From a virus (Duplodnaviria; Heunggongvirae; Uroviricota; Caudoviricetes): a stretch of 48,264 bases of DNA. Made by a program: the position numbers. The stretch is taken from the IMG/VR virus record IMGVR_UViG_2718217789_000011. One strand, given 5' to 3'. Shown here piece by piece: positions 42,001 through 48,000 of the stretch. Within the stretch, counting starts at the first letter, position 1. The number at the start of each line of letters is the position of its first letter.

Positions 42001-45000
42001 GATCGTGACCCACCCTAACTACATAATCCTGTACAGAGTAGCTGCTTCAAGCATTGAGATTGTAAGCGTGACACATTCTCGGCGACAATTTCCCTTCTCT
42101 ATCTGAGTTGAACAATTTTCATACTCCCTCTTTCGAGGGATTTTTTTGCCCAAAACAACAATTAAAAACTGTTGACACAAAAACAGTTTTTTATTGTAGA
42201 TTACATACACCAACCACCCACCCCGCCCCACAGAACGCCGGGCAATACTTCGAGTTACCAAGCAGTGGTCAGGGGGTAAGTAGCCAGCCCGAGGCGTATG
42301 AACATGACGGCAGGGTTCAACTTTAATAACTATGCAGCAGGTTTTTGTTCCGCTACCCGGCGTTAAGGGGAAATGAGGTCAACATGGATACTATCGATCT
42401 TGGCAACAACGAATCTCTGGTGTACGGCGTGTTTCCCAACCAGGACGGTACATTCACCGCGATGACGTATACCAAAAGCAAAACGTTTAAAACCGAAAAT
42501 GGTGCCCGTCGCTGGCTGGAAAGAAACTCAGGTGAGTGATATGGATTTCGACACAATCATGGAAAAGGCTTACGAAGAATACTTCGAAGGCCTTGCCGAA
42601 GGCGAGGAAGCTCTCAGCTTCAGTGAGTTTAAACAGGCGCTTTCCAGTTCGGCAAAATCTAACGACTAACGGAGTTAAAGATGGAATTTAAAGATTTACT
42701 AAAAGAAATCCAGGAAATTGCAGCACATGCACTTCACCAACGTCTGAACGAAGTTGAATTAGAATCTGCAACGAAGAAATACATTGATAATATGGCTCGT
42801 AATGTGCGCGATGCGTTTACCGGATTGTACTCTGTTTCGGTAACAAACAACCAGAATACTGAAGAAACTGCAAAGCGGATTGCCTCGGTGATGGGTTTTC
42901 ATGTCGAGGAAAAGTATTCAAAAAAAGAATTCTGGAAAACTACAAAAAAATTGCAGAGCGAGAACTGTCATCTCCTGCGGCAATCGCTTCTTTCTATGAG
43001 GAAAGTTATTCAGATGACACAGGATTACCGGAACTGCTCTCATTACTTGAAAAATTCGGAATTATCATGAAAGGGACTGCGTCGGCGGATTTCACATACT
43101 CAATGATGGCTGCTGATGGAGAGCCTTTTCCTCCCGAACTTAAAATAACCCCCGGCAATCATCCGATGGTAACAATAAGAGCAATAGAGAATTACTGGTT
43201 TAATCCAGTTCAACAATAGTTGGTCTTTGCAATATTTTTAATGGGCCACTACGCCCTTAATCTCGGGCGGCGTTTAACTCTTTATTCAGTAAATCAGACT
43301 GATACTGATTTGGCTTTGTAATGATACTGTCAAGTTTTGATATATGAAATTCAACATGTTCTGGACAGTTAAAAATGTAATAACCGCCCTTCTCTAAAAA
43401 GCCAGAAAGAGCGTTACAGGCAGGGCATGGTTTGTTTGGCATTTTATCCTCCATTAAGGGCTGAATTAAAAATGGAGACCAACACGCTGCTACGTGTGGT
43501 CGTGCGCCGGACACAGATAAGAATCCGGCACTGACAGTTTACTGAAAGGATATATCCCTGAAAAGTCAGGGCATAACACGAAAGTGCACGGCGAAGTCCT
43601 TCTCCCTTAGAGCCGTCGTTAAATTTAATTCGACCGTGCGCTTCCGGTTGTGGCAATCCGCGAAATGGCGCGGCGGTAAGTATGGCGGGGTTATTCTTTC
43701 CCCGTTGAGGACACCGGGTTGTCAGGTTGACCATACGCTTAAGTGACAACCCCGCTGCAACGCCCTCTGTTATCAATATTCTGGTGACATTTGGCGGTAT
43801 CAGTTTTACTCCGTAACTGCTCTGCCGCCCTTTTTTAAAAGTGAATTTTGTGATGCGGTGAATGCGGCTCAGCGCACGCGGAACAGTTAAATCGGTAAAG
43901 CGGTCATTTGCTGAGTAACGAGAATGCTCTGTATCCGGCGTTAATTGTTAACTGGTTAACGTCACCTGGAGGCACCAGGCACCGCATCACAAAATTCATT
44001 GTTGAGGACGCGATAATGGAAAAGTTATCATGTAATGCCAGCACGTCTGAACTTCGTTTCGAAATTGGCGTTATCACTGGAGACAAAACATTTATTGAAG
44101 ACGCCATTAAGCAGAGAAAACTCGAGCAGGACCTGTTAAATGAAGTATGCATTCCTTCAATGCTGGCTCGTCTGGACCTGCTGCAAAAAGGATATAAACA
44201 ATGAATACAACATTTGCACTCGTTCTGACAGTTTATCTTGTTTCCGGCGAATCTCTTGAGCTGGTGACTGGCTTATACGGTTCAATGAAAGAATGCATGG
44301 CTGCAGCAGCAGAACAAAAAATTCCCGGTAACTGTTATCCGGTAGATAAAACTACTCACACTAATAATAACGAAATACCGGCAGGACTTTAAAACAGCAC
44401 CGTAATTAATATCCGGTTTCATTTTTATATGCCAGCAATGGCAGGGATTTGTTCACCCTTAAATCTGTAATGAGGTTAAAACACAATGAGTAAAATCTTT
44501 ATTTGCGCTGCTATTCCTGACGAACAGGCCATAAAAGAAGATAGCGCTGTTGCGGTGGCCACTGCCATTGAAGCCGGTGATGAGCGTCGCGCACGCGCAA
44601 AATTTCACTGGCAATTTCTGGAGCAATTCCCGGCAGCTCAGGACTGCGCTTATAAATTTATTGTCTGCGAGGATAAACCCGGCATACCCCGCCCTGCCCT
44701 CGATTCCTGGGATACCGAATATATGCAGGAAAACCGCTGGGATGAGGAGTCAGCTTCCTTTGTACCGGTCGAACCAGAATCCGATCCGATGAACGTCAAT
44801 TTTGACAAGCTGTCCCCTGAAGTACAGAACGCAGTCCTGGTTAAATTCGACACATGCGAAAACATCACCGTTGATATGGTGATTAGCGCACAGGAATTAC
44901 TACAGGAAGACATGGCAACATTCGGCGGACATATCGTTGAAGCGTTGATGAAAATGCCAGAAGTTAACGCCATGTATCCTGAACTTAAACTGCATGCCAT

Positions 45001-48000
45001 CGGGTGGGTTAAGCATAAATGTGAGCCTGGCGCTAAATGGCCTGAAATTCAGGCAGAGATGCGCATCTGGAAAAAACGTCGCGAAGGTGAACGCAAGGAA
45101 ACCGGAAAATACACGTCTGTTGTTGATCTCACCCGCGCCAGAGTCAACCAACAGAACACTGAAAACGCTGCTGAAAAAACCGGGGCTGTCACTGTTGCCA
45201 TTCGCCGCGAATACAAACAGACATGGAAAACACTCGACAATGAACTGGCCTGCGCCCTCTGGCCCGGTGATGTGGATGCAGGAAACATTGACGGTACCAT
45301 CCATCGCTGGGCGACAAATGAGGTTATCGACAAGGATCGCGAAGACTGGAAGCGTATCTCAGCATCAATGCGCAAACAGCCCGAAGCACTTGGCTATGAC
45401 CGTCAGACTATTTTTGGCCTTGTTCGCGAACGTCCGATCGATATTCACAAAGATCCCGTTGCACTGAACAAATATATCAGTGAATACCTGACGACAAAGG
45501 GCGTGTTTGAACATGAAGAAACAGACCAGAGCTCTACTGATGCTCTCCAGCCGTCAGCAGCACAAACTGCTCCAGTGGAGACGGCAGAATCCGATACTCA
45601 AAAAAATGAAATCCTGGTGGAAGCTGAACCATCTGTAGAGCGTGAAGGACCATTTTATTTCGTCTTTACCGATAAGGGCGGGGAAAAATACGGCAGGGCA
45701 AACAAACTTTCTGGTCTGGACAAGGCGCTGGCTGCCGGCGGTACCGAAATCTCAAAAGAAGAATATTTTGCCCGAAAAAATGGCACATACACGGGCTTAC
45801 CGCAAAATGTGGATACCGCTGAAGATTCCGAACAATCAGAGCCGGTAAAAGTTACCGCTGACGAAGTAAACAAAATTATGCAGGCAGCCAATATCAGCCA
45901 GCCTGACGCCGATAAATTGCTTGCTGCATCACGTGGTGAATTTGTTGAAGGGATTAGCGACCCGAATGATCCGAAATGGGTGAAAGGGATCCAGAGTCGC
46001 GACGCTGAGGACCAGAATCAGCCCAACGTGAAACAAAATGAGCCAGAAGCGGAACAAAACAGCCCGGATACGCAACAAAACGGGCCAGAAGAACAACAAC
46101 CAGAACCAGCAGTGCAACAGGAACTGGAAAAAGTTTGCACCGCATGCGGTCAGACCGGTGGCGGCAACTGTCCTGACTGTGGTGCGGTGATGGGGAACGC
46201 AACCTACCTGGAAACATTCGATGAAGAGAATCAGGCTGAAGCTCAGAAAAATGATCCGGAGGAAATGGAAGGCACTGAACATCTGCACAAGGAGAACACT
46301 GGCAGCGATCAGTATCACGCCAGCGATAATAAAACTGGCGAAACAGCAAATCCCTTAATTAAAGTGAACGGTCATCATGAAATCTCATCCACCAGCAGGT
46401 TGTGGCACCATCTGATGATTGACCTTGAAACAATGGGAAAAAATCCTGATGCGCCAATAAACTCTATAGCCGGTAAGTTTTTTGATCCGGCAACCGGAGA
46501 GATGGGGCCAGAATTCAGCAAAACTATCGATCTGGAAACCGCAGGTGGGGTCATCGATCGGGACACCATTAAGTGGTGGCTGAAACAGTCACGCGAAGCA
46601 CAATCCTCCATTCTGACCGATGAAATCACGTTGGATGATGCACTGCTGCAATTCCGGGAATTTATCGACGAAAACTCCGGTGAATTTTTTGTTCAGGTCT
46701 GGGGTAACGGTGCAACTTTCGACAACGTGATTTTACGCCGTTCATATGAACGGCAGGGGATCCCCTGCCCGTGGCGTTACACCAATGATCGCGATGTAAG
46801 AACGATGGTTGCTCTGGGACTGGTGATGGATTTCGACGCAAGAACGACTATTCCATTCGAAGGTGAACGCCATAACGCCCTGCACGATGCACGTTACCAG
46901 GCGAAATACGTTTCAGCCATCTGGCAAAAACTGCTCCCGAGTCAGGCTGATTTTTGATGTTCAACCCATATCGCCGCCCACCAGCTATAGTGGCGGCGGT
47001 CATGCTGTAAAGGCACGTGACCACATGTACGAATTAACTCTATCTCCAGCAGAGATTAAAGAGATCACGAAATACGAGCGATACACAAAACAGCAACACC
47101 AGTTAAGACTGCACGGCATCCCATTTGTAATCGGCCCTAAAAACGAACCCATAGTTCTCCGCAGGGATATTCCACACGGTCTGACAACGATGCCAAAAAC
47201 ATCTGAACTGGTTTCTGCTGAACCCGATTTTGAGGCGCTGAACAATGGGAAGACCAAGAAAAAATAAAAAAGATAATGTACTGCCACCGCGGGTTAGATC
47301 GAATGGTTACAGTTACGTGTGGAAACCCGAAGGAAGTACAAGAAGTATAGGGCTAGGAAGAGTGCGGAAAACCAGCGTAGCTAAAGTCTGGCAAAATTAT
47401 GAACTGGAAAAAGCAAAACTCCACAACATAATGACCGTAGCTAAATTGTGGCACATGTTTATGGACTCCCCTGCATTTACAGAACTGGCCCCCCGAACCC
47501 AAAAAGATTATCGACAACATCAGAAGGCGTTGCTGATGGTATTCGGAAAAGTGCTTGCTGATAATGTCAAAACTGAGCAGGTAAGAATTTTCATGGATAA
47601 ACGAGGGCTTGAGAGCAAGACCCAGGCAAATCATGAACTGGCAAGCCTGAGTCGAGTATACGGGTGGGGATATGAGCGTGGGTATGTGAAGAATAACCCA
47701 TGCAAAGGAGTCAGAAAATTCTCTCTTAAAGCCCGCACTGTTTACATCACCGATGAACAGTATGCGGCGATATATGCGGAAGCAATTCCACAGTTACGCA
47801 TTGCAATGGAGATTTCCTATCTCTGTGCGGCAAGACTCGGTGATGTGCTTGAGTTGAAATGGCAGGATATTATGGATAAAGGGATCTACATTGAGCAAAA
47901 CAAAACCGGCACCAAACAAATCAAGGAATGGTCACCGCGATTACGTACAGCGATCCAGTTAGCCCGAAATGTATCTTCCTGTACATGCGAATATGTGATC

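Follow-up and report, generated by a model that had tools for sequence, protein, structure and literature searches.

A RecE-family scaffold joined to a DexA-type DEDDh exonuclease domain in the leftward operon of an Escherichia coli O157:H7 lambdoid prophage

Results

The gene preceding xis and int encodes a two-part protein

The 48,264-nucleotide (nt) sequence of IMG/VR record IMGVR_UViG_2718217789_000011, analyzed here at its full length and called the window below, is a lambdoid prophage of Escherichia coli O157:H7, and the gene under study is the last one before xis and int in its leftward operon. An original prediction, made from the sequence alone, had placed here a RecE-like protein ending in a DEDDh-type exonuclease domain. 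The 823-codon open reading frame (ORF) was found to be uninterrupted; it begins with an ATG preceded by a GAGG motif approximately 10 nt upstream, and its product is spanned wholly by PHROG 2082 (1-823/823). It combines a scaffold, homologous in part to RecE of the Rac prophage, with a linker and a C-terminal DEDDh domain, the latter standing where RecE carries its PD-(D/E)XK nuclease. In many O157:H7 chromosomes a 100% identical gene lies inside a prophage next to yccA, and the product name given to these copies by PGAP is ‘exonuclease’. The coordinates of the gene, its domains and its surroundings are collected in Table 1.

Table 1. Features of the exonuclease gene and of the surrounding prophage, in window coordinates
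Feature	Position	Strand	Basis or remark
Complete ORF (scaffold, linker and DEDDh exonuclease domain)	44486..46957	+	823 amino acids (aa), stop codon included
Residues 1-257, N-terminal scaffold domain (YdfE_N type)	44486..45256	+	PHROG 5943, 1-257
Residues 258-470, middle scaffold	45257..45895	+	BLASTP, alignment, AlphaFold2 (AF2) model
Residues 471-625, RecE-like linker	45896..46360	+	NF007259, BLASTP, AF2 model, DNA alignment
Residues 551-566, predicted zinc-ribbon motif CxxC-x7-CxxC, CTACGQTGGGNCPDCG then xVMGNATY	46136..46183	+	Sequence
Residues 641-813, DEDDh 3′-5′ exonuclease domain (PF16473 Rv2179c-like; T4 DexA/EcD type)	46406..46924	+	
Exo I motif, codons D646-L647-E648, predicted metal ligands	46421..46429	+	Align to DexA D7/E9
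Exo II motif, codon D746	46721..46723	+	Invariant in alignment
Codon T766	46781..46783	+	Alignment; DexA W152 equivalent
Exo III motif, codons H796 to D801 (H-x4-D, DEDDh subtype)	46871..46888	+	Align to DexA H186/D191
DicF antisense small RNA (sRNA)	43779-43830	+	Rfam RF00039, 76.9 bits
dicB	44016-44204	+	Upstream of exonuclease gene
ydfD-like gene (DUF1482)	44201-44392	+	Upstream of exonuclease gene
Excisionase-like gene (DUF4224)	47025-47267	+	Downstream of exonuclease gene
Tyrosine integrase gene	47245 to window end (48264)	+	Downstream of exonuclease gene
Chi sites	18889, 25581, 26067, 30987, 33580, 33632, 40567, 46389, 46978		
GC-rich inverted repeat, CGCCGCCCACCAGCTATAGTGGCGGCGG	46968-46997	+	Between exonuclease stop codon and xis
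Helix-turn-helix (HTH) regulator	41199-41600	+	
PaaA2-type antitoxin	41628-41819	+	
ParE toxin	41819-42106	+	
IS66-family element	20855-23188	-	HTH_Tnp_1, TnpB_IS66, DDE_Tnp_IS66 (E 2e-106)
616-aa DUF1737 and SASA (sialate O-acetylesterase-type) protein	27554-29404	-	
AraC-type regulator	30172-30885	-	

The C-terminal domain carries intact DEDDh residues on a DexA-like fold

Pfam search of the window protein found a single domain, PF16473, which matched residues 641-813 over its entire profile (1-177/177; E 3.6e-62; 209.6 bits, gathering cutoff 27). The three motifs that the original prediction had quoted, MIDLET, WGNGATFDNVIL and HNALHDA, were located at residues 644-649, 739-750 and 796-802, respectively. 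They are not chance matches, as shown by the full-profile match and by the five residues D646, E648, D746, H796 and D801, which were invariant in a 20-sequence alignment. The AF2 model of residues 626-823 (predicted local distance difference test [pLDDT] 86.4; predicted template modelling score 0.83) resembles T4 DexA, which was the best PDB match in a Foldseek search (8KEL; E 1e-11; TM 0.73) and was followed in structural rank by RNase T and oligoribonucleases; the DexA, RNase T, oligoribonuclease and REXO2 matches each had a probability of 1.00. When the PDB was searched by sequence with the family profile, only DexA matched (E 2e-15), and DexA itself is a PF16473 member by Pfam search. A standard RecE nuclease at the C-terminus was rejected, there being no PF12684 (PD-(D/E)XK) match at E<=0.1 and no BLASTP similarity past RecE residue 591.

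The structure of DexA has been solved, and its E. coli homologue EcD has been reported to digest DNA containing 5-hydroxymethylcytosine (5hmC) and to protect against T4 (Kang et al., Nucleic Acids Research 2025, PMC12153337). A 189-aa IMG/VR protein agrees with the position ‘A78’ and with the primer sequences published for EcD, from which we infer that it is EcD; it is 38% identical to the window protein over residues 644-816 (E 2e-32), and the EcD-like gene sits in P4-like satellite contigs. From its DEDDh fold, the window domain is predicted to work 3′-5′, opposite to the 5′-3′ polarity of RecE.

Residue 766 varied more than any other position in the domain (entropy 2.84 bits; 11 different residues among 87 homologues), and it lies within the near-invariant motif C-P-W-x-x-[766]-N-D-R-D-V-R-T. 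Its DexA equivalent, W152, is reported to contact or stack on 5hmC (PMC12153337). The 5hmC-recognition residues are not kept in the window protein, where T766 and V780 correspond to W152 and D169 of DexA. Diversifying selection may be acting on codon 766.

Similarity to RecE does not extend beyond codon 625

In BLASTP comparison with K-12 Rac RecE, residues 262-625 of the window protein aligned with RecE residues 278-591 (E 4e-59), identity being much higher from approximately residue 470, and nothing aligned beyond. The RecE-like character that had been attributed to the central part thus stands, with the refinement that the first ~257 residues form a different N-terminal module: PF06630 (Exonuc_VIII), which RecE has at 2-178, was not found in the window protein by Pfam search. 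This module is 89% identical to K-12 ydfE (1-255), which corresponds to its first 255 codons, and AF2 gave pLDDT values of 83-92 across residues 1-205. Precomputed Pfam annotation lists PF27430 (YdfE_N), PF16473 and PF27432 (YdfE_C) on two cluster representatives (P0121 and P0122) that are 100% identical to the window protein over residues 1-625, and through these representatives the scaffold can be assigned, indirectly, to the PF27430 plus PF27432 type.

The middle scaffold contains a weakly RecE-like helical domain (~245-340) and a small, conserved beta/alpha mini-domain (~385-435; ‘ERxGPFY...GRANK...EISxEEY’), which is not in RecE and in which E385, R386, G388, P389, F390, Y391, G403, R404, N406 and K407 are invariant. 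The linker that follows is acidic and Q-rich, mostly disordered (AF2 pLDDT <50) and close to RecE 448-591. It includes a zinc-ribbon motif common to RecE and the window protein, which is predicted from sequence and has low pLDDT in the AF2 model. At the DNA level, nt 1425-1874 of the gene are 76% identical to nt 1365-1772 of recE, and this homology ends at codon 625. NF007259, the NCBIfam model for the RecE equivalog, matched residues 453-625 only (profile positions 446-602/877), and its score of 260 bits lies under the curated cutoff of 1269.

In Rac RecE itself, PF12684 occupies residues 615-850, and the only solved part, PDB 3H4R, covers 605-866. The topology of this nuclease core resembles lambda Exo (2023 review, PMC11611040), in agreement with the fold given in the original prediction. 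Because RecE homology stops at codon 625, where the PD-(D/E)XK nuclease begins, the supposed domain-swapped variant is a true domain swap, in which the DEDDh domain of PF16473 replaces PD-(D/E)XK; hybrids with a true RecE N-terminus also exist. We consider it very probable that the protein is an active DEDDh 3′-5′ exonuclease tethered to a RecE-family scaffold, and that it arose by replacement of the head at the linker boundary.

One scaffold is found with several heads

When residues 1-625 served as a phmmer query, only 246 relatives were found among 1.84 billion cluster representatives, and head types were counted in the 56 of them that had at least 450 aa. A head designated type C was present in 17, a RecE-type PD-(D/E)XK head in 13 and a DEDDh head in 8; a further kind of domain (type D) was found in 7-8, and in 11 the head was absent or truncated. 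Every combination of N-terminus and head occurred among the scaffold relatives, which are carried by other prophages of enterobacteria. For example, P0252 joins residues 1-445 of Rac RecE (94-100% identity) to a DEDDh domain of the window type (87% identity), phage vB_EcoS-640R1 carries a RecE-type N-terminus with a DEDDh head in the gene order dicB-ydfD-exo-xis-int, and P0249 (locus L046) combines the N-terminal type of the window protein with a PD-(D/E)XK head, the next gene there belonging to the RecT family (PF03837, E 2e-36).

The type C head matched Pfam Rad52_Rad22 below threshold (17.9 vs 20.3 bits) and, by hhalign, residues 46-161 of human RAD52 (E 0.015; RAD52 sequence checked against 1KN0), including a KKSLTDAxKKALSxLGF signature; a PDB profile search with this head gave no identification. 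Because its assignment is based on the sub-threshold Pfam match and an hhalign E of 0.015, we grade the type C head as only a probable Rad52-like annealase. A Gam gene lies upstream and a Gp157 (Sipho_Gp157) gene downstream at the type C loci. The type C proteins are ~780 aa long (P0250, P0253 and relatives; L041 5650-7986 and L042/L043 6001-8370). NCBI names them ‘exodeoxyribonuclease VIII’ although their YdfE scaffold ends in a probable annealase, which is likely a systematic misannotation. They may correspond to ‘RecE-2’, described in the main text of Zheng et al. (Genome Research 2025, PMC12315714) as RecE relatives without a nuclease domain.

Head type was also compared with the neighboring genes. 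RecT adjoined both PD-(D/E)XK-headed loci that were examined (Rac and L046), whereas an adjacent annealase was seen at none of the five DEDDh-headed loci (the window, L003, L004, L005 and L044). The DEDDh domain further occurs in genuine stand-alone genes of ~188 aa in Salmonella and Klebsiella prophages, in the same slot, last before xis; BLAST of their neighbors against the scaffold and the other heads matched nothing. The ‘183-aa’ stand-alone forms in E. coli were rejected as independent genes, being contig-edge or split fragments. DNA, rather than RNA, is likely to be the substrate of the DEDDh domain, because both characterized close relatives are DNases and the exchanged heads act on DNA.

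A Dam-like DNA methyltransferase of P4-like satellites (L037 5187-6167, minus strand, and L034), whose gene adjoins the EcD-like exonuclease gene, ends in the RecE-type zinc-ribbon motif; what it has in common with window positions 46136-46210 is C-x2-C-G-x-x-GGG-x-CPDCG-x-V-x-G[DN]ATY. On this sequence pattern the motif looks like a portable module.

The gene is widespread and under purifying selection

Of 5426 complete E. coli genomes, 3527 contain a full-length copy; diverged copies numbered a median of 2 and up to 10 per genome. The ratio of nonsynonymous to synonymous substitution rates (dN/dS) was calculated against the orthologues of two inducible phages, Tritos and PhiR42_1 (87% DNA identity). 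The N-terminal domain gave 0.11, the middle scaffold 0.21, the linker 0.32 and the exonuclease domain 0.12. Purifying selection is thus acting on every part of the protein. A decaying pseudogene was rejected, given the intact ORF, the dN/dS of 0.11-0.32 throughout and the presence of the gene in inducible phages.

The operon lacks an annealase and the prophage is rich in Chi

The leftward operon runs in the order HTH regulator, PaaA2/ParE toxin-antitoxin, ydfA/B-like ORFs, DicF, dicB, ydfD-like gene, exonuclease gene, xis and int, and phages Tritos and PhiR42_1 share the gene order of the window. Because DicF, dicB and the ydfD-like gene lie upstream, the exonuclease gene occupies the distal position in a dicBF operon of the Qin type. 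No promoter or terminator of its own was found, and the consensus scan gave fewer promoter-like sites than chance.

That no RecT-like gene follows was read correctly in the original prediction: the next ORF is the DUF4224/excisionase-like one, and after it comes the tyrosine integrase. Neither an annealase nor SSB nor Gam was detected by annotation and PHROG scan in the leftward operon, from the repressor region to int, and the PHROG scan revealed no annealase hidden in the short ORFs upstream. Nor was an adjacent annealase found in Tritos, PhiR42_1, L005 and vB_EcoS-640R1.

Chi (GCTGGTGG) occurs nine times in the window, compared with 2.09 ± 1.36 expected, and 0 of 100 shuffles reached nine. 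According to the main text of Zheng et al. [quoted passage not shown] Since it is Chi-rich and has no annealase and no Gam, the prophage presumably relies on host RecBCD/RecA. Two of the nine Chi sites fall within or just past the exonuclease gene. The inverted repeat that separates the exonuclease stop codon from xis has no T-run after it, and its minus strand contains Chi.

Other features of the window

The HTH/PaaA2/ParE module occupies the expected site of a cI-type repressor, opposite Cro/YdaS-like and YdaT-like genes; we take it to resemble the three-component paaR2-paaA2-parE2 system of O157:H7. An IS66-family element is inserted in the prophage; HTH_Tnp_1, TnpB_IS66 and DDE_Tnp_IS66 were matched by its three ORFs. 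The genes of the DUF1737/SASA protein and the AraC-type regulator lie in or beside a low-GC stretch at ~30-33 kb (GC 0.40-0.44), and are probably accessory cargo of enterohemorrhagic E. coli lambdoid prophages.

Discussion

A proposed role in linear DNA end processing

We interpret this gene of the leftward early operon as encoding a mosaic protein, with its first ~625 residues best described as a non-catalytic RecE/YdfE scaffold made of two folded domains, a mini-domain and a long, disordered, acidic zinc-ribbon linker, and its last ~200 residues as a DEDDh exonuclease with intact catalytic residues, which would have replaced the PD-(D/E)XK nuclease of RecE by recombination at the linker/nuclease boundary. 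In the mechanism we propose, derepression of the prophage would lead to production of the protein together with DicF, DicB, Xis and Int; the C-terminal domain would then trim nucleotides from free 3′-OH ends of DNA, with two Mg2+ held by D646, E648, D746 and D801 and with H796 as the general base. The scaffold would supply targeting or oligomerization, as in RecE, and the protein would not be one half of an exonuclease-annealase recombinase. For the biological role, we give roughly even chances to an accessory nuclease that trims 3′ ends of linear DNA during the lytic program of a RecBCD/Chi-dependent phage. The variability of residue 766, which this role leaves unexplained, favors a part in an arms race.

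Under an alternative patterned on the HREX model, an EcD-like nuclease for inter-phage exclusion or defense would degrade foreign, possibly base-modified DNA from 3′ ends, with residue 766 tuning what is accepted and the scaffold localizing the enzyme; prophages, including the many cryptic ones that keep the gene, would then protect their host from competitors. We regard this as possible though rather unlikely. It draws on the stand-alone EcD, reported to digest 5hmC DNA and to protect against T4 (PMC12153337), on the relatedness of the putative EcD to the domain and its location in P4-like satellite contigs, on the match of the most variable residue in an otherwise invariant motif to W152 of DexA, and on the several diverged copies per genome. 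The int-adjacent slot, too, is where the main text of Zheng et al. (PMC12315714) places sporadic accessory genes for DNA interaction that are outside the Rec module. Against it, PADLOC gave no match, so that a known defense component is not supported, and the residues that recognize 5hmC in DexA are not conserved. The neighboring gene dicB confers phage resistance when expressed, which counts in favor of defense. The exonuclease gene itself belongs to the leftward operon and lacks a promoter-like site of its own; it is, for that reason, probably silent in a stable lysogen. Finally, the identity of EcD is deduced from primer sequences, and the EcD result comes from a single study with plasmid expression.

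The other two alternatives appear improbable, and to a similar degree. The domain could, like Rv2179c, be an RNA-directed 3′-5′ exonuclease, trimming 3′ ends of the DicF/dicB transcript, of host RNAs or of RNA-phage genomes, with the N-terminal part as a required auxiliary domain. Its Pfam family name and NCBI product names read ‘3′-5′ exoribonuclease’, RNase T and oligoribonuclease rank next after DexA by structure, and the processed sRNA DicF is encoded in the same operon; prophage DEDDh exonucleases with variable auxiliary domains (‘TONDO’, ISG20-like) block RNA phages according to a 2026 preprint (PMC13344964). The best matches in sequence and structure, DexA and EcD, are nevertheless DNA enzymes, and among the heads that take its place on this scaffold, itself from a DNA recombination protein, are a DNA nuclease and a probable DNA annealase. 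The TONDOs, for their part, were selected as ISG20 homologues of <500 aa and are set apart, in the preprint’s description, from other defense-associated DEDDh domains (PMC13344964).

Alternatively, the enzyme might serve recombination in trans, by 3′-5′ resection in combination with host RecA or the annealases of other prophages, of which O157 carries many, through intermediates of opposite polarity or fully single-stranded ones. RecE has this scaffold, and so do proteins encoded at the same place in the operon in which it is fused to a probable Rad52-like annealase; linear-linear recombination is stimulated by RecE when the whole protein, with its scaffold, is present (PMC11611040). PMC12315714 accepts certain genes of DnaQ type, for instance the one in phage epsilon34, as members of the Rec module. 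Annealase-dependent pathways, however, need the 3′ tails that 3′-5′ polarity destroys, and the adjacent annealase is missing from all five independent DEDDh-headed loci while present at both PD-(D/E)XK-headed ones.

More speculatively, and with little probability in our estimate, the RecE/YdfE scaffold could be a general adaptor that brings swappable DNA-processing heads to one cellular target, its DEDDh version being a diversifying, modification-reading nuclease in which residue 766 sets which foreign or modified DNA is destroyed. If so, this would be a widespread, unrecognized system of inter-phage warfare, with a full-length copy in approximately two-thirds of complete E. coli genomes.

Significance and relation to published work

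Both the sequence and the architecture are already catalogued, in PHROG 2082, in Pfam (YdfE_N, Rv2179c-like and YdfE_C) and in thousands of RefSeq entries. In its main text, PMC12315714 notes that the early-left operons of lambdoid phages encode DnaQ-like 3′-5′ nucleases, many of them ‘very near int’, and does not count them as Rec-module members. The searchable literature, including that main text, yielded no description of the fusion of a RecE scaffold with a DnaQ-type domain. The same searchable literature, main text of PMC12315714 included, held no description of the head-swapping series with its probable annealase head, and no account was found there of how head type goes with the occurrence of an annealase gene.

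Public annotation of the family is inconsistent, as ‘exodeoxyribonuclease VIII’, ‘exonuclease’ and ‘3′-5′ exoribonuclease’ are all applied to it, and the RecE label misdescribes both the catalytic domain and the predicted polarity. This concerns a gene that is among the commonest of E. coli prophages. The N-terminal domain of RecE has no known function, yet the full-length protein boosts linear-linear recombination (PMC11611040), and the series of heads amounts to a natural experiment on the role of these unexplained N-terminal two-thirds. The gene also bears on how DNA ends are handled by Chi-rich prophages without a recombination module of their own. Should the defense explanation be true, it would be a very widespread exclusion factor; otherwise the result is mainly a correction of annotation.

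Comparison with known systems

Mycobacterium tuberculosis Rv2179c, the founder of PF16473, shares the Pfam family and the DEDDh chemistry with the window domain but is a small chromosomal exoribonuclease, and the matches listed from the PDB searches by sequence and by fold, which DexA headed, did not include it. K-12 Qin ydfE (b1577) resembles the window gene in its N-terminal module and in the order dicF-dicB-ydfD-ydfE. Unlike the intact window copy, it is a pseudogene (L040 5079-5999; NC_000913.3 1650078-1650998), and because it is truncated by the IS2 element IS2E, K-12 lacks its linker and DEDDh domain. The int-proximal DnaQ-type genes of lambdoid phages (PMC12315714) are alike in their early-left operon location and in the ‘no Rec module, high Chi’ class, whereas the fusion of scaffold and DnaQ-type domain and the series of heads are not in the main text of that paper, whose supplementary tables may list the fusion.

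Rac RecE (exonuclease VIII, K-12 b1350) is similar in the middle region, the linker and the zinc-ribbon, in size (866 aa against 823) and in its slot in the leftward operon between a kil-type gene and xis/int. The window protein differs from it by the absence of PF12684 and PF06630, by the absence of a recT gene after it and by a predicted polarity of 3′-5′ instead of 5′-3′. It is likewise unlike the two-component recombinases RecE/RecT and Exo/Bet in that no annealase adjoins its gene, and its DEDDh fold predicts a polarity opposite to that of a 5′-3′ dsDNA exonuclease leaving 3′ tails.

For the catalytic domain, T4 DexA (exonuclease A; PDB 8KEL/8KEN) shares PF16473 and the aligned DEDDh residues and is the best PDB match by profile and by fold; it is, however, made by a virulent phage as a stand-alone protein of 227 aa, with ~24-27% identity and extra loops, and its W152 and D169 become T766 and V780. 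EcD, the ‘HREX’ anti-T4 exonuclease (PMC12153337), also stands alone, belongs to P4-like satellites rather than to a lambdoid leftward operon and keeps the tryptophan that the window protein lacks, but at 38% identity and borne like it on a mobile element, it is the closest characterized bacterial relative.

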